Assembly (NCBI RefSeq): GCF_044324875.1 | Contig: NZ_CP172185.1 | Reading direction: 5' to 3' (one strand) | Origin: Escherichia coli | GTDB lineage: Bacteria > Pseudomonadota > Gammaproteobacteria > Enterobacterales > Enterobacteriaceae | DNA: 64,000 nt | Part shown: one piece after another, positions 7,158 to 59,960 of the stretch | Position numbering within the stretch: the first letter of the stretch is position 1 | Layout: the number at the start of each line of letters is the position of its first letter | Program-made: the position numbers and the translations under genes | Notes under the pieces: generated by a model | Database searches by the model: none | Told to the model about the DNA's origin: nothing | What the model saw: only the letters and a program-made list of their open reading frames with translations

Positions 7158-7613
7158 ATGCTGGATATAATCCTGGCGACGAGAGATATTTATTTTGAAA
7201 AAGCCCTGCGAGAGATATTTGGAACCGTAAGCAGTCGAATCAGATATATAGAAGATGCCATATCAGACAGAAGAAGGGTGCAGTCAGGCAGGTCATTCAG
7301 ATATTATTTTGTATTCTGTGATGATGAGTATACAGATATTGTTCGTATTCTTTTTACCGGAGAGGCCTGCTGTATTCTGAATAAGTCGATGCTGAATCTG
7401 AGAGCGGCCGGAGGTGTGTTGACGCTGGAAGAGCGCAGAGCGGTACTGAACCGGTATTACAGAGGTTTAAGTATTGCGGAGATTACAGAAGAGACGGGGC
7501 AGAATGACAAGACGGTATACGGTCATCTTCGTCGTGCACTGCAGCGGTCTGGATTCCGGAAGGGGCGTTTTATAAAGGGGAGAGAAGCGGCGGGGGATTC
7601 AGGTGTTGAATAA
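7158..7613 (+). CDS. Small putative HTH regulator (LuxR / sigma-70 region-4-like C-terminus)
   Basis: 151 aa; C-terminal …LTLEERRAVLNRYYRGLSIAEITEETGQNDKTVYGHLRRAL… resembles a LuxR-type helix-turn-helix. Sits 60 bp downstream of the adhesin gene. Confidence 0.4.
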   Translation: MLDIILATRDIYFEKALREIFGTVSSRIRYIEDAISDRRRVQSGRSFRYYFVFCDDEYTDIVRILFTGEACCILNKSMLNLRAAGGVLTLEERRAVLNRYYRGLSIAEITEETGQNDKTVYGHLRRALQRSGFRKGRFIKGREAAGDSGVE

Positions 7614-7859
7614 TGTATCTTATATTGTGATATCGGTGCTGCTGCTGTTATTTTTTGTTGTATTTGTGACGAATGGTTAAGAATAAAACATGAGTTGGTG
7701 ATTATCAGGACAGGTTGCTTGTATATGAAGATAACAAAGGCGGCATTTATTTTTGCGCTGTCAGTGTGGAGTGTTGCTGTGATATGTCTTTTATTATTTG
7801 TACTGGTTGTTCTGGGATAGCCATAGTGAAATAAAAAGCTGTCTGAATTAAATTATTTT

Positions 7860-9170
7860 GCACACATGTTTTAATTCTGCACTGAATTCAGAATGGGTAA
7901 TCAGTGACCGTCCAGGCGGTCACCGAACTCGATAATAAAGCGGCTCATTGCCATTCGCCAGTCCTTCAACGGCATCGTCCATTTCTGGGACGCAGACTGG
8001 ATTGCCAGCCACACCACTTTTTTCACCGAGTCGTCTGTCGGGAACACTTTACGCTTTTTGATCGCATGGCGGATCACGCTGTTTAGCGACTCGATTGCAT
8101 TCGTCGTATAGATCACTTTGCGGATGTCCGTTGGATAAGCGAAGAACGTGGCAAGATTCGGCCAGTTAGCCTGCCAGCTTCGGCTTATCTGAGGATAGCG
8201 ACTGTCCCAGGCCGCAGCGAACGCTTCCAGTGCCTGCTGACCTGCCTCTTCCGTGGGAGCCTGATAAATCGCTTTCAGGTCGCGAGTGACGGCTTTGTAG
8301 TCCTTCCATGACACGAAGCGCAGGCTGTTGCGCACCATATGCACGATGCATAACTGGATGCGGGCCTTCGGATATACTGTGTTGATGGCATCCGGGAAGC
8401 CTTTCAGGCCATCCACACAGGCGATGAGGATATCGTTCAGACCGCGGTTTTTCAGTTCAGTCAGCACATTGAGCCAGAACTTCGCCCCTTCATTTTCGGC
8501 CAGCCACATACCCAGCAGTTCCTTCTGACCTTCGATATTGATGCCCAGTGCCAGGAACACCGATTTGTTGATGACGCGACTGTCCTGCCGAACTTTCAGG
8601 ACGATACAGTCAAGATAAACAATGGGGTAAACAGCATCCAGTGGTCTGTTTTGCCATTCTACAACCTGCTCCATCACGGCATCGGTGACCTTTGATATCA
8701 GTGCCGGTGAAACATCTGCGTCATACAGTTCTTTGAACGCAGTAGCTATCTCACGGGTGGTCATCCCTTTGGCATACAACGAGAGGATCTGGTTATCCAT
8801 CCCGGTAATACGGGTCTGATTTTTCTTTACCAGTTGTGGTTCGAAGGTACCGTCACGATCGCGCGGAGTACGCAGTTCCAGTGGACCGTCGCCTGTGATA
8901 ACGGTCTTTGTGGAATAACCGTTGCGGGAGTTAGCTCCTGGTCTGGACTGATTTTTCTCATACCCAAGATGGTGTGTCATCTCTGCATTGAGAGCGGCTT
9001 CAACGCTGAGCTTTTTCAGCAGCCGATCAAACTGACTGAGGTCTTCAGGGGTTTTGAGGTTTTTGGCCAGTTCGTTAGCCAGAGCCTGTAACTGTTTTTC
9101 GTCCATAAATTAACCTTCATTTGATGCTGGATTGAACATATCAAAATCAGGCAATTACACAAATCTATGT
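7860..9170 (-). mobile_element. IS256-family insertion sequence (boundaries approximate)
   Basis: Single 401-aa transposase ORF with about 50-60 bp flanks; terminal repeats not confidently delimited by eye. Confidence 0.6.
7901..9106 (-). CDS. IS256-family transposase
   Basis: 401 aa, MDEKQLQALANELAKNLKTPEDL… with …YLDCIVLKVRQ… and …CIVHMVRNSL… motifs typical of IS256 (mutator-type) transposases. Confidence 0.85.
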   Translation of the reverse strand: MDEKQLQALANELAKNLKTPEDLSQFDRLLKKLSVEAALNAEMTHHLGYEKNQSRPGANSRNGYSTKTVITGDGPLELRTPRDRDGTFEPQLVKKNQTRITGMDNQILSLYAKGMTTREIATAFKELYDADVSPALISKVTDAVMEQVVEWQNRPLDAVYPIVYLDCIVLKVRQDSRVINKSVFLALGINIEGQKELLGMWLAENEGAKFWLNVLTELKNRGLNDILIACVDGLKGFPDAINTVYPKARIQLCIVHMVRNSLRFVSWKDYKAVTRDLKAIYQAPTEEAGQQALEAFAAAWDSRYPQISRSWQANWPNLATFFAYPTDIRKVIYTTNAIESLNSVIRHAIKKRKVFPTDDSVKKVVWLAIQSASQKWTMPLKDWRMAMSRFIIEFGDRLDGH

Positions 9171-50064: not shown

Positions 50065-50160
50065 AACCGATATTCCTTTTTGCAGATAAATGAAAACGCC
50101 AGCCCTGTTCAGGCTAGACTGGCCCCCTGAATCTCCAGACAACCAGTATCACTTAAATAA

Positions 50161-50571
50161 GTGATAGTCTTAATACTAGTTTTTAGACTAGTCATTGGAG
50201 AACAGATGATTGATGTCTTAGGGCCGGAGAAACGCAGACGGCGTACCACACAGGAAAAGATCGCAATTGTTCAGCAGAGCTTTGAACCGGGGATGACGGT
50301 CTCCCTCGTTGCCCGGCAACATGGTGTAGCAGCCAGCCAGTTATTTCTCTGGCGTAAGCAATACCAGGAAGGAAGTCTTACTGCTGTCGCCGCCGGAGAA
50401 CAGGTTGTTCCTGCCTCTGAACTTGCTGCCGCCATGAAGCAGATTAAAGAACTCCAGCGCCTGCTCGGCAAGAAAACGATGGAAAATGAACTCCTCAAAG
50501 AAGCCGTTGAATATGGACGGGCAAAAAAGTGGATAGCGCACGCGCCCTTATTGCCCGGGGATGGGGAGTAA
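50161..50571 (+). CDS. insC: IS2 InsC
   Basis: 136 aa, identical in length and nearly identical in sequence to copy 1. Confidence 0.9.
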
Positions 50572-51434
50572 GCTTAGTCAGCCGTTGTCTCCGGGTGTCG
50601 CGTGCGCAGTTGCACGTCATTCTCAGACGAACCGATGACTGGATGGATGGCCGCCGCAGTCGTCACACTGATGATACGGATGTGCTTCTCCGTATACACC
50701 ATGTTATCGGAGAGCTGCCAACGTATGGTTATCGTCGGGTATGGGCGCTGCTTCGCAGACAGGCAGAACTTGATGGTATGCCTGCGATCAATGCCAAACG
50801 TGTTTACCGGATCATGCGCCAGAATGCGCTGTTGCTTGAGCGAAAACCTGCTGTACCGCCATCGAAACGGGCACATACAGGCAGAGTGGCCGTGAAAGAA
50901 AGCAATCAGCGATGGTGCTCTGACGGGTTCGAGTTCTGCTGTGATAACGGAGAGAGACTGCGTGTCACGTTCGCGCTGGACTGCTGTGATCGTGAGGCAC
51001 TGCACTGGGCGGTCACTACCGGCGGCTTCAACAGTGAAACAGTACAGGACGTAATGCCAGGAGCGGTGGAACGCCGCTTCGGCAACGATCTTCCGTCGTC
51101 TCCAGTGGAGTGGCTGACGGATAATGGTTCATGCTACCGGGCTAATGAAACACGCCAGTTCGCCCGGATGTTGGGACTTGAACCGAAGAACACGGCGGTG
51201 CGGAGTCCGGAGAGTAACGGAATAGCAGAGAGCTTCGTGAAAACGATAAAGCGTGACTACATCAGTATCATGCCCAAACCAGACGGGTTAACGGCAGCAA
51301 AGAACCTTGCAGAGGCGTTCGAGCATTATAACGAATGGCATCCGCATAGTGCGCTGGGTTATCGCTCGCCACGGGAATATCTGCGGCAGCGGGCTTGTAA
51401 TGGGTTAAGTGATAACAGATGTCTGGAAATATAG
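50529..51434 (+). CDS. insD: IS2 InsD
   Basis: 301 aa DDE transposase. Confidence 0.9.
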
Positions 51435-51496
51435 GGGCAAATCCACAGGCTGGCGTCAGGTTAATGAATCGTGGTGAGTGAGATGATGAGTGAAAC

Positions 51497-51742
51497 TCAC
51501 CGTTTCTGGTGCTGAAGCTTCCGCTTCAGCTGGCGCAGGGTGCGGATATCCGCTCTGGCCTGTTCAATAACGGGCAACAGTGCTGCCGAATCCGTTTTAT
51601 CCTCATCGTTGTCGAAGATAATGCCGGAGCCGCAGTCGATATTGTCCTGCAGCCACGCAATCAGAATATCCGGTGCCGTTTCCGTGGTTAATGATTTCAT
51701 ACTGTCGGTTACCAGTCGAAAGTGGGTAAACCCGGCAGACAT
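51497..51742 (-). CDS. Small hypothetical protein (YeeW-like position)
   Basis: 67-81 aa depending on start; acidic, …DNDEDKTDSAALLPVIEQARADIRTLRQLKRKL…. Confidence 0.35.
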   Translation of the reverse strand: MSAGFTHFRLVTDSMKSLTTETAPDILIAWLQDNIDCGSGIIFDNDEDKTDSAALLPVIEQARADIRTLRQLKRKLQHQKR

Positions 51743-52197
51743 TCAGCGCCGGCATCCAGATGGATGAGACTGACGCCATAACGCCGGATGAGTGTGACAA
51801 CCAGACGACGAAACGTTTTTGACAGACCCAGGCGTTTAAGCCGCAGAGCCGGGTACGACCACGCATCGGTACGTAACAGATATCCGCTGCCTGTAAAATG
51901 AATCCATTCTGATTCGCCGGTGTCATTCGTCTGATGCGACAGCGAGTACAGCCAGGCATTGTCCTGTTCCGTGATATGTGCGGTACTGCAGCGTATGCCG
52001 GTAAGGGCCGCAAATGGTGGCATGCAGTCTGCTGAGGTCCGGTCAGATTCATCAACAACACGAAGGGAACAGCCGTTATCGCAGACCACGTTAATCAGTT
52101 CAGCGAGATTAACACCATCGACGTCAGCGACAATGCGCCCCATGTTCAGTGCCTGCACGTTAACGCTGTCGGCTTCCAGTGTCAGGGACAGTTTCAT
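51709..52197 (-). CDS. Hypothetical protein (162 aa) immediately downstream of cbtA
   Basis: Start overlaps the cbtA stop (ATGA). Confidence 0.4.
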   Translation of the reverse strand: MKLSLTLEADSVNVQALNMGRIVADVDGVNLAELINVVCDNGCSLRVVDESDRTSADCMPPFAALTGIRCSTAHITEQDNAWLYSLSHQTNDTGESEWIHFTGSGYLLRTDAWSYPALRLKRLGLSKTFRRLVVTLIRRYGVSLIHLDAGAECLPGLPTFDW

Positions 52198-52325
52198 GGT
52201 TTCACCTCACAGTGTTTACCCAGGGTGATGTTGTTCACCATTCGGTAGTGGCTGCGGGTCATCAGCCCGGTTGCCCGGCGGGCCCGGAGAATATCAATGC
52301 TGCTGATTAACTGAGAACGGGTACT
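52194..52325 (-). pseudogene. cbtA: cbtA-like toxin gene, 3' portion (separated from 5' portion by IS100)
   Basis: …TRSQLISSIDILRARRATGLMTRSHYRMVNNITLGKH… continues the CbtA frame once IS100 and one copy of the duplication are removed. Confidence 0.7.
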
Positions 52326-52327
52326 GG

Positions 52328-54954
<2,627 letters not shown>

Positions 54955-54991
54955 GATAAATCCTCTGTGAAAGTGGGTTGAGGTGATGAGG

Positions 54992-55648
54992 TCAGCTGAA
55001 ATGATGTCCGGCTGCGGTGAAGGTGTATCCGTTGATGAGAAGCGCCTCATCCACGGCGTCGTCTGAGGTCAGCCAGTCGTACTCGTTTTCCAGTTGACTG
55101 TATAACCAGAAGGCCAGGTCCCGCAGGGCGTCACAGACAACGGTTTCTGCATCGGCTGTCATTGCCTGTCCGGTCGGACTGTTCCGGGTAACAGTGATAT
55201 CCATGCTGTACGGATGGCAGTAGTGTCCCCGGTGACTGATTTCAGCCTGTAACTGCCGGAAGTTACGTTTCTGCACCGCCTGCAGGGCATCCGCGATACG
55301 ATGAAGTTCATGGTCCTGCGGGGCATATTCCCGGATTTTCCTGGCTGTTGCCGGCTGCCAGTGCCAGCGTCCTTCAAAACAGGCTCCGTCCCCCTGGCTG
55401 CAGAATCCGCTGAACCAGATACACGGCTCTTCCATAAACCTGCCGCTGCTGAGCCGGATAACTCGCTGGCGGAGGACAATCCCGACAATCTCACAGACCG
55501 CCCTGAAGTCTTCATACACGTTTTCATACCAGCTGCTGTCAGCATGATGCTGACGGTACCAGTCACGGGCTTTTTCCCGTGCTGTGGCGGAAAGTTCATC
55601 CGGCGTATACACGGTGGTGGTGATAATTCTGCTCATCCGCATCTCCAC
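54992..55648 (-). CDS. Hypothetical protein (218 aa) between the DUF987 gene and cbeA
   Basis: Cys/His/Trp-rich (…CIWFSGFCSQGDGACFEGRWHW…, …HRGHYCHPY…); not part of the module as I recall it from E. coli K-12. Confidence 0.5.
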   Translation of the reverse strand: MEMRMSRIITTTVYTPDELSATAREKARDWYRQHHADSSWYENVYEDFRAVCEIVGIVLRQRVIRLSSGRFMEEPCIWFSGFCSQGDGACFEGRWHWQPATARKIREYAPQDHELHRIADALQAVQKRNFRQLQAEISHRGHYCHPYSMDITVTRNSPTGQAMTADAETVVCDALRDLAFWLYSQLENEYDWLTSDDAVDEALLINGYTFTAAGHHFS

Positions 55649-55652
55649 TGAC

Positions 55653-55889
55653 TCAGTTCAGGGTGACGCTCATCAGCCGGACATACGGGCCAAAACTGTC
55701 CTTGCGGCGTTCGGCAAACACGGCCAGTACGCCGGGGATATCCTGTACTTCACGACCGGTATACGCCTCAGTGCCGCCGTGCCAGCGGTACTTACCGGTG
55801 CAGAACGGAAAAAGACGGGATGACGGATACTGACGGTGAACGCGCATGGCTTCACCACGGGTGACGATTTTCATAGTGTGATACCTCAT
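55653..55889 (-). CDS. DUF987 (YeeT-like) protein
   Basis: …MKIVTRGEAMRVHRQYPSSRLFPFCTGKYRWHGGTEAYTGREVQDIPGVLAVFAERRKD…. Confidence 0.7.
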   Translation of the reverse strand: MRYHTMKIVTRGEAMRVHRQYPSSRLFPFCTGKYRWHGGTEAYTGREVQDIPGVLAVFAERRKDSFGPYVRLMSVTLN

Positions 55890-55958
55890 GAGGATGAGAG
55901 AGAGTAAAGGGCCGGATGACGATGACAGATATGTGGTTTGCTGTGATTTGTCGCAGAA

Positions 55959-56477
55959 TTAAAGCAGGCCGTGTTCGGCAAAGGAGAACACCCGGCTGCC
56001 ACCGACTATCAGATGGTCCGGTACCCGGATATCCACCAGGGCCAGTGCCTGTACCAGCCGTTCCGTGATAAGCCGGTCAGCCTTACCGGGTGTGACTTCA
56101 CCGGACGGATGATTGTGCGCCAGCACCACGGCAGCGGCATTGTGGTACAGGGCGCGTTTAACCACCTCCCGGGGATGGACTTCCGTGCGGTTGATGGTGC
56201 CGGTGAAGAGGGTTTCACCGGCAATCAGCTGATTCTGGTTGTTCAGGTACAGCACCCGGAACTCTTCCCGCTCCAGTCCTGCCATGTGCAGAATCAGCCA
56301 TTCCCGTGCCGCATGCGTGGAGGTGAAGGCCACACCGGGTTCATGAAGATGGCGGTCCAGGGTTTTCAGGGCACGCTGAATGAGACTGCGCTCGCCGGGC
56401 GTCATCGCGCCGGGCAGAAAGGAAATCTGTTGCATAACCTCACCCCTCAGTCGATGATGCGAATAATGGCGCTGCAT
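55959..56477 (-). CDS. RadC-like JAB-domain protein (YeeS/YfjY-like)
   Basis: …VVLAHNHPSGEVTPGKADRLITERL… (JAMM metalloprotease-like HxHPSG motif). Confidence 0.8.
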   Translation of the reverse strand: MQRHYSHHRLRGEVMQQISFLPGAMTPGERSLIQRALKTLDRHLHEPGVAFTSTHAAREWLILHMAGLEREEFRVLYLNNQNQLIAGETLFTGTINRTEVHPREVVKRALYHNAAAVVLAHNHPSGEVTPGKADRLITERLVQALALVDIRVPDHLIVGGSRVFSFAEHGLL

Positions 56478-56920
56478 TCCGGATGCTGCAGGGCGTAATC
56501 CCGCAGCCGGTAATAATGGACCGTCATGGCATAATGCTCCGTACTGCAGGCGTGATGACTGTAGGCCATCAGACAGGCGGCAATGCCGGCGGCTTCCGGG
56601 CTCATTTCCGCGCGGTTACCGTTCATGGCGTTAAACAGCACCCATTTTTCGTCATCATCGTCACCCGGTTCGGGAGCCATAAATGCGCCGCCGTTGTTCA
56701 GGGTGTACATATTCCAGATACCCCCACTGTAGTCTTCACACAGACGGTCCATCCAGCCGAAGACACGGGGCTCCAGGGTCACCCACTGCGGAATGAGGCC
56801 AAAATGCTGCGGCCAGAAGCTGATGCGCTGTTCGTCAGGCACCGTGGTGGCAACCAGCTGAGGTGTATTATTCCCGGATGCAGTGGCTGCGGAAACAGAG
56901 TCATGCGAAACCGTTTTCAT
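56447..56920 (-). CDS. Antirestriction protein (ArdB/KlcA-like)
   Basis: 157 aa; acidic, …NMYTLNNGGAFMAPEPGDDDDEKWVLFNAMNGNRAEMSPEAAGIAACLMAYSH…. Confidence 0.75.
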   Translation of the reverse strand: MKTVSHDSVSAATASGNNTPQLVATTVPDEQRISFWPQHFGLIPQWVTLEPRVFGWMDRLCEDYSGGIWNMYTLNNGGAFMAPEPGDDDDEKWVLFNAMNGNRAEMSPEAAGIAACLMAYSHHACSTEHYAMTVHYYRLRDYALQHPECSAIIRIID

Positions 56921-56933
56921 AAGTGAAATCCTT

Positions 56934-56973
56934 AAGTGAATAAGTGAATAAGTGAATAAGTGAATAAGTGAAT
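56934..56973. repeat. Octanucleotide tandem repeat (AAGTGAAT)x5 in the 5' leader of the antirestriction gene
   Basis: Five perfect 8-bp units at 56934-56973; the start codon is at 56918-56920 with AGGA between repeat and ATG on the minus strand. Confidence 0.9.
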
Positions 56974-57013
56974 AGATAAGAGAGAAAAGGCTGCGCCTCT
57001 CAGGCAGAAGGCA

Positions 57014-57832
57014 TCAGCGCATACTCACCAGCAGCGTTTCCGCCATCACCCACAATGCACGATTGAGCTTAATGTCGGTGTCGATACTGTGAATGGCCCG
57101 GGTGTGGATACGTTTTCCTTTTGCGCTGCGTCCCTGAAGACCGCCTTTGAGCATATTCTCCTGGATGGTCTGATAAGCACTCCACAGGTCCCTGCCGTAA
57201 TCCTCCCGGCGTCGTGGTGTCAGAATGTCGGCGGTGGTGACGGGCTGATGTTCGTCACCATAACGGTAAGTCAGTGCCGCCTGTGCCAGCGCCTGACGAG
57301 CCGGTGGTGGTAAAATCAGCGACTGCATGGCATCACGCTTCTCCTCAATCCGGTCAAACACGCCCACAACCTCGTAAGCCCCTTCGATGACCCTGTCCAC
57401 CACGTTTCCCCGGTGCGGGACACGCACCTCTCCGAGAGACTGACCACAGACACATCCGTTCTGACACACGAACCGGAAGTAACCCGGCAGCATCTGGTAG
57501 CTGGAGGTACCGTCATGGGAGTTCAGCAGGATGATTTCAGGAACGTGCTGTCCGTTTATCTCCCCGTCACGGCGCAGACGCAGCATGTGCTTTGTGTATC
57601 CCCGGCGTCCCGGGTCACGCACGCGGGTCTGGCAGGCAAAGAACGGCTGAAAGCCTTCCCGCTGCAGGCTTTCCAGTACGGTGATGGTGGGGATGTATGT
57701 ATAGTTCCGGCTCCGGGAGGTGTGCTTATCTTCCCCGAAAATCCCGGGCACATGGTGCATCAGCTCTTCACGGGTCAGCGGACGGTCACGGCGTATCTGG
57801 TTCGCATAACCGAAACGACTGGCTAATCGCAT
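57014..57832 (-). CDS. DUF932 (YfjQ-like) protein
   Basis: 272 aa; conserved island-module neighbour of the GTPase gene. Confidence 0.65.
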   Translation of the reverse strand: MRLASRFGYANQIRRDRPLTREELMHHVPGIFGEDKHTSRSRNYTYIPTITVLESLQREGFQPFFACQTRVRDPGRRGYTKHMLRLRRDGEINGQHVPEIILLNSHDGTSSYQMLPGYFRFVCQNGCVCGQSLGEVRVPHRGNVVDRVIEGAYEVVGVFDRIEEKRDAMQSLILPPPARQALAQAALTYRYGDEHQPVTTADILTPRRREDYGRDLWSAYQTIQENMLKGGLQGRSAKGKRIHTRAIHSIDTDIKLNRALWVMAETLLVSMR

Positions 57833-58016
57833 ACTTTGCTCCTTATCGGTGGTTAATATTTACTGATGTAATAAATGAAAAAGCCGCGTCTCCCGGGGAA
57901 GACGCGCCTGATGGATGAAATGAATGAGGGTTTACCGAAGTCCTTCAGCATTGAGGTGAAGCAGCCGGAAAGGTGTTACCTGGTCATCGACGGGTCAGGT
58001 CAAAAAGCGGGGACAT

Positions 58017-58901
58017 TCAGAACAGGCGATCCCACAGTGTGACCAGCAGGCGGATAATGCGATCACGGGCTTTGCGCAGAAGCTGCAGCATCCATGCCGG
58101 AAAGCTGAACCGGGCAATGGCCGCGTCAAAGCTCTGGCCGATGGCGTCACCAAAAGCCTGCTGTGCGTGTTGCTGATCCTGCGCAGTGCGCTTTTCATTC
58201 CGGATATGCGAATAAACCGCGCTGGTTGCCTGTGGTGGCAGGGCGTGGATCATCAGAGACACAAATGCCGGAAGATTCCAGCCGGCAGGAGCGGCTATGG
58301 GGAGTACCGGAAATGATGAAGGGAACAGGGTTGCCACCCGGGCTGTCACCGTCGCCAGTGAGAGTTCCTGCTGACGGGATGGCGTGCTGCTCTGGTTGTT
58401 CCATTCTTCAGCCGGGTGGATGCGATCGGCATGGCTGAGAACAAACAGAAAACGCGAGGGATCGGCACCTTCATTCAGTAAAAACTGATGCATGGCAATA
58501 TCGGCAGCATACGCACGTTCATCAGCCCGCAGGATCCAGATAATCAGATCCAGTTCGGGTAGTAACTGACGGTAAAGTGCCCGGTATTCCTGATCATGCT
58601 GTGGTGTTTCGCCAGTGCCGGGCAGATCGACGAGCGTCATTCTGCGTTCACCGGGCTGAAAGGTAAGACGATGAGCCTGACGGGTGCAGCCGTTCAGCGG
58701 ATGCGTGGCGCAGACACGGGACTGAAAAATGGCATTGCACAGGCTGCTTTTTCCGGCACCGGATTTACCCATAATGCCAATAACGGGTTCGTAATGAATG
58801 ACGCTGTGAAGATGTTCAAGGATTTTCTGGCGTATTTCTTCAGGAAGAAAGGTCAGATGTGACTTTACGTGTGCGGAAAGGGAAGAATGGCTGAATGACA
58901 T
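58017..58901 (-). CDS. YeeP/YfjP-family GTPase
   Basis: G1 motif GIMGKSGAGKSSLCNAIF, G3 …DLPGTGE…; typical first conserved gene of CP4-like modules. Confidence 0.85.
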   Translation of the reverse strand: MSFSHSSLSAHVKSHLTFLPEEIRQKILEHLHSVIHYEPVIGIMGKSGAGKSSLCNAIFQSRVCATHPLNGCTRQAHRLTFQPGERRMTLVDLPGTGETPQHDQEYRALYRQLLPELDLIIWILRADERAYAADIAMHQFLLNEGADPSRFLFVLSHADRIHPAEEWNNQSSTPSRQQELSLATVTARVATLFPSSFPVLPIAAPAGWNLPAFVSLMIHALPPQATSAVYSHIRNEKRTAQDQQHAQQAFGDAIGQSFDAAIARFSFPAWMLQLLRKARDRIIRLLVTLWDRLF

Positions 58902-59006
58902 ACCGGTATCCTGTTGATTTCACTGAACCGGATCACATTAATCCGGTCTCTCAGTCAGGTAATATGGACGTGAAAAAATCTGGAGTGATAAAGTGTGGGA
59001 GGTGAG

Positions 59007-59960
59007 ATGACGGCACAACAAAGTGATGCGCTGCGTGAGATTGCTAATAAAGCCAGAGTTACCACCATTCTTCAGAGTAAGGTCTGGAAAGATACCCAGC
59101 GAATACTGAAGCGCAGCGGACTCGTGTACGGAAAACGGTCAGAGCCGTTTGATCCGGAGAAACATTTTGACCTTCAAACGGTGCGTTATCTGTATCAGCT
59201 TAACATGATGGCACTTGAGTTAAGGGAAGACACACAGATTGAGGTTGAGGTGGGCCACTGGCATCGCATGACAGGTCAATGTTTATCAATTCGTGTCCCG
59301 CCTTTTATGCTGATCCCGCGTCATATCCGGAGAAAAGTGGATGGATTCAGACAATCAGAAGGTAAAACAACAAAAAAACCGACTCAACCGTTCACGGGCA
59401 GTTTGTATAAGATTTTGCTCAGGGATATTGACCCGGATAAGCTGGATGCATGGTTTGCTGAACCGCCGATGACATGGCAGGAAGTGCTGGAGGGGAGGCG
59501 TGTCACTGATTTTAATCCATGGGCTCTGTCTTCGCCTATTTGCCGTTCAGCATCCCCGACGTTTGAACTTTTTTACCAGGAATATAAGCGACTGGGATTA
59601 AAATCTCTTTTTGTATCAGGGGTAATGTTTGAACAATTTTTAACAAAACTGAATGTCAGAAAACATGAGTACGGGGTTGAATCGCAGTTACTGGAATCAC
59701 TGGGAAATGTGATGTTTTTCATGTTGCTTTATGACATTGAAAATATGGCAAGGTTTACAGAAGCACTTATGAACATTAATGAGCAAAGTGGACATTCGAA
59801 GGGAAAAGGGAAAACGCGAACAGAGATAATGCTGGAATATATCAATTCATATATCCTCGATGTTCATGAAAACTTCCTTTGTTCTTCAAAAGAAAGGTAC
59901 GAACAGCATAAACGCAAAAACAGCAGTAAAAAGAAAAACGGTTCTGGTGGAACGCATTAA
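59007..59960 (+). CDS. Hypothetical protein (about 317 aa), low GC
   Basis: Start at MTAQQSDALREIANKARV…; Lys-rich C-terminal tail; no recognizable motif. Confidence 0.5.
   Translation: MTAQQSDALREIANKARVTTILQSKVWKDTQRILKRSGLVYGKRSEPFDPEKHFDLQTVRYLYQLNMMALELREDTQIEVEVGHWHRMTGQCLSIRVPPFMLIPRHIRRKVDGFRQSEGKTTKKPTQPFTGSLYKILLRDIDPDKLDAWFAEPPMTWQEVLEGRRVTDFNPWALSSPICRSASPTFELFYQEYKRLGLKSLFVSGVMFEQFLTKLNVRKHEYGVESQLLESLGNVMFFMLLYDIENMARFTEALMNINEQSGHSKGKGKTRTEIMLEYINSYILDVHENFLCSSKERYEQHKRKNSSKKKNGSGGTH

Follow-up and report, generated by a model that had tools for sequence, protein, structure and literature searches.

Why should an open reading frame (ORF) of 218 codons lie between the DUF987 gene and the antitoxin gene cbeA at positions 54,992-55,648 of a 64,000-nucleotide stretch of Escherichia coli DNA (contig NZ_CP172185.1; this whole stretch is referred to as the window), when the corresponding modules CP4-44, CP4-57 and CP4-6 of E. 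coli K-12 all lack it? The original prediction, made from the letters of the sequence, gave the K-12 arrangement correctly and regarded the ORF as an extra gene inserted into an otherwise stereotyped DUF987/cbeA/cbtA module. Our analysis assigned the gene to the DUF8835 family, an identity that we consider close to certain; it is a common gene of a catalogued family and not an unusual insertion.

Comparison with its relatives showed that the interval 54992-55636 is an intact gene for a 214-aa protein and evolves under purifying selection: pairwise ratios of nonsynonymous to synonymous substitution rates (dN/dS) were 0.13-0.26 against the copies from E. coli, Citrobacter, Salmonella and alphaproteobacteria, the protein had 2,807 word-indexed homologues, its relatives clustered at 50% identity gave 3,451 representatives, of which 387 lay below E 1e-30, and an AlphaFold2 model built from an 87-sequence alignment was confident (pLDDT 95.6; predicted template modelling score, pTM, 0.87). 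Substitution pattern, homologues and fold prediction together rule out a chance ORF. The most probable start is the ATG at 55636, giving 214 residues and not the 218 predicted originally, because a GGAG motif lies 6 nt upstream of it, the RefSeq start of a 100% identical copy in E. coli AR_0085 is the matching codon, and the homologues are essentially all 214 aa long with an N-terminus of MSRI or MPEI. The 218-codon frame is nevertheless present on the minus strand, with exactly the spacing that had been given (4 nt from the DUF987 stop codon and 37 nt to the cbeA ATG at 54954), and the description of the product as rich in Cys, His and Trp holds for the shorter protein (6 Cys, 10 His and 7 Trp).

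Membership of DUF8835 rests on the RefSeq names of near-identical copies, in that E. coli genes of 94.5% nucleotide identity in the same module position (WP_045145966.1 and others) are called 'DUF8835 domain-containing'; the 214-aa protein had no match in the copies of Pfam, NCBIfam and PADLOC used, the Pfam copy being older than the DUF8835 model, and a Pfam scan of 87 relatives assigned no family. In some RefSeq records (NZ_CP135671.1, NZ_AP045773.1, NZ_CM176589.1 and others) the product string is misspelt as 'DUF8835 domain-containing pootine'. The protein matched the PHROG family phrog_5162, of unknown function, over residues 6-216 (E 1.3e-36). It possesses the family-wide motifs (GFxSQGDGA, HxGxYxH, WxYxxL and NxYxFxxxG) and length of about 214 aa, and in the 87-sequence alignment it carries 25 of the 25 nearly invariant residues and both of the invariant ones, with near-invariant positions at E14, L15, G52, G77-F78, Q81-G82-D83-G84-A85, F87, L111, I114, Y139, H141, R172, W177, Y179, L182, N202, F206 and G210. 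DUF8835 was named in no paper found, and the papers on yeeT, yeeS and yeeU were silent on the gene.

The predicted fold is of the alpha/beta type: two helices at the N-terminus are followed by a meander of six strands, a hairpin of helices, two further strands and, at the C-terminus, a long helix. The homology and structure searches proposed with the original prediction thus led to a large family, DUF8835, and to no relative in the PDB, where neither the single sequence nor a profile gave a sequence hit below E 0.4 and the predicted fold found no structural relative and no enzyme fold match; in BFVD, uncharacterised phage proteins were matched (E 3e-7, TM score ~0.6). Family members are acidic (median isoelectric point, pI, 4.8; net charge -17). 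Domain fusions were sought as clues to function, and the longer members carried only low-complexity or unrelated tails; one E. coli homologue of 283 aa (P0001) contains a tandem duplication of roughly its first 69 residues. With its more than 3,400 clusters at 50% identity and a confidently predicted fold that lacks a PDB relative, this very large family is of modest interest in its own right.

Within E. coli the gene proved to be widespread. Megablast located it in 1,967 of 5,426 complete genomes, at 2,834 places in all and with up to 8 copies per genome, while DUF987 has 11,907 places spread over 4,755 genomes; from the ratio of these places, about one DUF987/cbeA module in four contains the DUF8835 gene. 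In 1,928 genomes DUF987, the ORF and cbeA stand together as an intact block of three genes, so the gene is a conserved and named member of these modules, contrary to the view of a module that is otherwise stereotyped without it.

The direction of change was examined by aligning the window with the spacers that separate DUF987 from cbeA in modules without the ORF. The yeeT-cbeA spacer of CP4-44 in K-12 BW25113 (73 nt; L011 1736-1808) retains the ribosome-binding site of the gene, its ATG and its first 8 codons, and the spacer of the O104:H4 strain C227-11 (79 nt; L013 1023-1101) retains the same 5' stub, which reads ...GGGAATTCTG ATG AGC AGA ATT ATC GCC ACT ACC... and translates as MSRIIATT, where the window protein has MSRIITTT; past this stub both spacers jump to the stretch just before cbeA. 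The spacer of strain DAM (162 nt; L012 1036-1197) has instead kept the last 33 codons in frame (ENEYDQMTSDAAVDEALLINEYIFTEAGLHAG-stop). Read from these alignments, the 5' stubs and the 3' stub of DAM are independent and different internal deletions. Because two different deletions left different stubs, the ORF-less modules would derive from ORF-containing ones, and it is highly probable that the yeeT/cbeA-type module originally contained the DUF8835 gene and that K-12 lost it by deletion. The polarity implied by an 'inserted' ORF is therefore reversed. The spacers of CP4-57 (37 nt) and CP4-6 (18 nt), which belong to more divergent modules, contained no recognisable stub of the gene. A 109-nt query taken from the 3' remnant gave 1,618 megablast places as against 2,834 with the full gene, the short query being the less sensitive. 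The 'stereotyped' K-12 layout is thus best regarded as a degraded derivative, and studies of CbeA and CbtA in K-12 omit a gene that is frequently found in natural isolates next to the toxin-antitoxin (TA) pair or within it.

These observations also bear on the proposal that the frame is a chance ORF, or recently inserted foreign DNA without a function in the module, for which the absence of the gene from K-12 and the lack of a match in the Pfam and NCBIfam library copies could be cited. That proposal is refuted by the dN/dS values, by thousands of homologues in which the length is kept at 214 aa, by the confident fold prediction, by the same position in 1,928 genomes and by the remnants in ORF-less modules, which point to loss and not gain; we give it practically no credence.

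Pfam confirmed the neighbours DUF987, cbeA and (truncated) cbtA that had been named from the sequence, and the full module order is GTPase - DUF932 - antirestriction - RadC - DUF987 - DUF8835 gene - CbeA - CbtA - DUF5983 - DUF957 - DUF4942. As a sequence scan between DUF987 and cbeA found nothing resembling a promoter and no convincing terminator on the minus strand, the DUF8835 gene is very probably co-transcribed with the cbeA/cbtA pair, as part of a long operon. To that extent the predicted co-regulation was supported; for a function accessory to the TA pair the evidence is divided, with the adjacency to cbeA speaking for it and the TA-free distribution of most of the family against it.

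The adjacency is constant in the Enterobacteriaceae loci examined (E. coli, Citrobacter and Salmonella), where the gene always abuts cbeA, on one side or the other. Comparison of gene order, which had also been proposed, showed that Citrobacter has the E. coli order (DUF987-ORF-CbeA-CbtA) and that the Salmonella order differs (DUF987-CbeA-CbeA-ORF-CbtA): tandem CbeA paralogues are present (S. enterica, L044 5260-7086; L096 4293-6081), and the gene lies between antitoxin and toxin with its ATG overlapping the cbeA stop codon by 4 nt (ATGA). Such arrangements would fit a DUF8835 protein that modulates CbeA or CbtA, whether by serving as an adaptor or second antitoxin or by regulating how active or stable the antitoxin is, and that is dispensable and hence often lost. 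The same explanation can draw on a Pseudosulfitobacter plasmid (P3; L009 9704-10803) in which the DUF8835 gene stands directly upstream of an unrelated TA pair, namely a MbcA/ParS-type antitoxin and a RES NAD+ phosphorylase toxin, and on the window itself, where the copy is intact despite a cbtA destroyed by an insertion sequence (IS), which is compatible with a role on the antitoxin side. In Pseudosulfitobacter P3 a different TA pair thus occupies the position of the E. coli cbeA-cbtA pair.

Natural in-frame ORF::CbeA fusions of 342-343 aa, found in several E. coli genomes (L101/L102 3001-4032; P0024, P0020, P0029 and others), likewise favour a link with the TA pair; however, they result from a spacer deletion of about 35 nt that removes the stop codon and keeps cbeA's own GAGGA and GTG, and they need not be functional. 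An AlphaFold2 model of ORF-(GGGGS)6-CbeA had a pTM of 0.62 with the two domains folded separately and no sign of a fixed interface, although this was a weak test (without predicted aligned error and with a shallow paired alignment). Further points against are that about three quarters of the DUF987/cbeA modules lack the gene yet keep cbeA-cbtA, that most family members, on integrative and conjugative elements (ICEs), plasmids and lytic phages, have no CbeA/CbtA or other TA pair nearby, and that the protein has no sequence relation to CbeA. Identity as a CbeA homologue was rejected on an hhalign comparison with the CbeA alignment (probability 0.1), and the 214-aa protein gave no Pfam match to CbeA (PF06154) or CbtA (PF06755). 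We therefore rate a third component of the CbeA/CbtA module as an unlikely, though not negligible, explanation.

Outside E. coli, a scan of one genome per species revealed 545 genomes with a relative. The alphaproteobacterial homologues on ICEs are about 60% identical and 214 aa long, and their neighbours include ArdC-N/MPTase, DUF2958, RadC, a 700-aa ParB_N protein, a 1,440-aa Sno-like helicase, DUF7146-Toprim and YAcAr; on a Roseobacter plasmid the gene is preceded by H-NS, SSB, DUF932 and two RadC genes. Among the 77 scorable of the 80 best alphaproteobacterial loci, the upstream neighbour belongs to one 138-aa family in 73 (loci L016-L095; also at 7592-8008 in both L003 and L006), and in 58 the end of that gene and the start of the DUF8835 gene share 8 nt, an arrangement from which the two genes are likely to form a functional pair. 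The 138-aa family has no Pfam assignment and 806 homologues, all 'hypothetical'; its candidacy as a homologue of DUF987 or CbeA was rejected (BLASTP E 0.044 over 31 aa; hhalign probabilities 0.05-0.2). Downstream, a Sno-like helicase was found in 37 of the 77 loci and the neighbours were otherwise varied, with no TA Pfam family among them.

The close coupling to an upstream gene raises the possibility that the DUF8835 protein is a host-directed enzyme or toxin-like effector held in check by the upstream product (the 138-aa protein in alphaproteobacterial ICEs, a CbeA-like protein in Salmonella, DUF987 in E. coli), in an antitoxin-then-toxin unit. Besides the single upstream family with its frequent 8-nt overlap, the 4-nt overlap with cbeA in Salmonella and a gap of only 4-16 nt after DUF987 in E. 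coli are in keeping with this, as is the resemblance of E14, Q81, D83, Y139, H141, R172 and N202, together with the GFxSQGDGA loop, to a catalytic or ligand site. Lytic phages, moreover, carry the gene alone in host-takeover regions. The three upstream partners are, however, mutually unrelated, the protein is acidic, which is unusual for TA toxins, and the coding sequence was annotated as intact in all genomes inspected, with none of the pseudogenisation expected of an unguarded toxin; nor was any toxin or enzyme family found in PADLOC, Pfam or NCBIfam, or any enzyme fold match in the PDB. A guarded effector is consequently an improbable reading.

Homologues are also present in 62-75 phage records, including Caulobacter phage CcrSC (L010 5001-5657) and Escherichia phage vB_Ec-M-J (L103 2252-2926). 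In jumbo phages (Caulobacter Bertelyvirus and E. coli Asteriusvirus) the gene lies among small unknown genes inside long direct terminal repeats, and hence occurs twice per genome. Terminal repeats of the T5 and SPO1 type hold early or host-takeover genes. The label 'RNA polymerase binding protein' attached to a homologue in a phage record was disregarded, the neighbouring names being plainly unreliable.

The leading region of plasmids is an anti-defence hotspot (Samuel et al. 2024, PMC11541004), in which DUF932/YubP, DUF905/YubL and KlcA-type antirestriction proteins are leading-region families 3, 2 and 9 (Supplementary file 3 of that study), and the ArdC-N, RadC and ParB domains of conjugative elements lead to the same point (Iyer et al. 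2017, PMC5512222). The window module holds such leading-region families (DUF932, antirestriction and RadC) in the same orientation as the DUF8835 gene. In Supplementary file 3 of Samuel et al. 2024, a family placed under 'Other unknown leading families' (family 394) bears the same UniProt name and may be DUF8835.

Taken as a whole, the explanation that we favour, by a little better than even odds, is that the DUF8835 gene is a module component acting as an early-entry, host-directed or anti-defence factor; for the early-entry or anti-defence role considered by itself our confidence falls somewhat short of even. The role is suggested by the recurrence of DUF8835 in leading-region neighbourhoods and phage terminal repeats, by the acidity of the family and by the lack of a promoter-like site or convincing terminator separating the gene from its operon neighbours. 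On this model the CP4-like operon would correspond, on the chromosome, to the leading region with which conjugative elements first enter a cell, and the DUF8835 product a single-domain acidic alpha/beta protein made early after entry of the element. It might then bind or modify a host protein, with anti-defence or host takeover as the outcome, and the conserved surface motifs GFxSQGDGAxFE, HxGxYxH, RDLAxWLYxQLE and NEYxFTExG may form the functional site.

Several considerations weigh against an early-entry role. No experiment or characterised homologue links the family to any activity, and guilt by association with leading-region genes is a weak argument. The constant adjacency to cbeA and the 4-nt overlap in Salmonella would fit a TA-linked role at least as well; the gene of the 138-aa partner, which overlaps by 8 nt in 58 of the 77 loci, may point to a unit of two proteins, unlike a simple stand-alone inhibitor; and the seven conserved residues named above as resembling a catalytic site could equally mark an enzyme active site. 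A broader proposal, which we regard as rather doubtful, is that DUF8835 represents a new and structurally unprecedented class of early-entry effector, common to conjugative elements, genomic islands and jumbo phages, that would neutralise a host defence or takeover target and that in Enterobacteriaceae would be wired to the cytoskeleton-targeting CbeA/CbtA pair, possibly as a third functional partner. Because ICEs, plasmids and jumbo phages carry DUF8835 on the DNA that enters the cell first, the family is a reasonable place to seek new anti-defence or host-takeover functions.

The features of the locus are collected in Table 1.

Table 1. Coordinates in the window of the DUF8835-family gene, the surrounding module and the interrupting element, with the basis of each assignment.
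Feature	Position	Strand	Basis
DUF8835-family gene, 214 aa	54992..55636	-	ORF, GGAG, RefSeq start, homologue length, dN/dS, AlphaFold2
Longer reading of the same ORF, 218 codons	GTG 55648 to stop 54992	-	Adds 4 codons
DUF987 (YeeT-like) gene, immediately upstream	55653..55889	-	Pfam PF06174, E 7.7e-37; RefSeq = 73 aa
cbeA, YeeU-family type IV antitoxin	54577..54954	-	Pfam PF06154, E 3.2e-54; RefSeq annotation of identical copy
cbtA 5' fragment, first ~85 codons, IS-cut	54282..54536	-	Pfam PF06755, E 1.5e-47, profile positions 1-83 of 112
cbtA 3' remainder	52194..52327	-	Collinear with AR_0085 locus (L001 13363-13496)
IS21-family element, 1,954 bp	52328..54281	-	ORFs; local blastn against AR_0085 locus
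istA (340 aa), within IS21-family element	53173-54195	-	
istB (260 aa), within IS21-family element	52394-53176	-	
RadC/JAB-domain gene (YeeS-like)	55959..56477	-	Pfam PF04002, E 7.9e-44
Antirestriction-family gene (YfjX/YafX-like)	56447..56920	-	Pfam PF03230 (Antirestrict), E 1.8e-36
DUF932 gene (YfjQ/YafZ/YubP-like)	57014..57832	-	Pfam PF06067, E 1.7e-51
GTPase-family gene (YeeP/YfjP-like), module head	58017..58901	-	ORF; RefSeq name of collinear AR_0085 gene
DUF5983 (YeeW-like) gene, module resumes past IS	51709..52197	-	ORF; collinear with AR_0085 DUF5983 gene

The interruption of cbtA falls after about codon 85, where collinearity with the AR_0085 locus ends (54282), and the inserted IS21-family element is flanked by a 5-bp target-site duplication that corresponds to L001 13363-13367 of AR_0085 and is found on both sides of the element; its size matches that of IS100. 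Because of this insertion the toxin gene is inactivated in the window, with cbeA and the 214-aa gene intact. Relative to AR_0085, an IS2-like element (IS3 family, orfA/orfB) is also present at 50105-51449, between the DUF957 and DUF4942 genes. Identity to AR_0085 is 100% over the RadC-to-cbtA segment (54282-56500) and 96.8% over a wider 5.4-kb stretch (54282-59612), a contrast that suggests mosaic recombination between paralogous modules.

Compared with known systems, the DUF8835 gene shares operon and orientation with the CbeA/CbtA (YeeU/YeeV) modules of the type found in CP4-44, CP4-57 and CP4-6, but it is not an obligatory part of them, as its presence in only about a quarter shows, and its product is not homologous to theirs. 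Its likeness to the Phd/YefM/StbD antitoxins (COG2161, PF02604) is confined to an inherited product name and an occasional position next to a TA pair: the 'antitoxin' label in RefSeq is the name phrase of COG2161 (StbD/Phd) and is not to be trusted. The domain of those antitoxins is about 80-90 aa long and is encoded directly upstream of a toxin, whereas the DUF8835 protein is more than twice the typical length and has a different predicted fold. No PF02604 match was obtained for the 214-aa protein at E<=0.01, PF02604 lay outside the 25 most-matched Pfam families (of 61) when 87 members were scanned at E<=1, and scans of Pfam, NCBIfam and PADLOC gave no similarity to any antitoxin family. Identity with the Phd/YefM/StbD antitoxins was rejected on the absence of a PF02604 match, the length and the predicted fold, and the DUF8835 protein is probably not an antitoxin.

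With the leading-region genes (ArdA, KlcA/ArdB, ArdC, PsiB, SSB, DUF932/YubP and DUF905/YubL) the resemblance is one of setting and general character. The DUF8835 protein has neither sequence nor fold similarity to known anti-restriction or anti-CRISPR proteins; the gene nevertheless shares with the leading-region genes the neighbours DUF932, antirestriction, RadC, SSB, ArdC-N and ParB_N, and its product, like those of leading-region anti-defence genes, is small and acidic, and is encoded in the first-entering terminal repeats of large phages as well.

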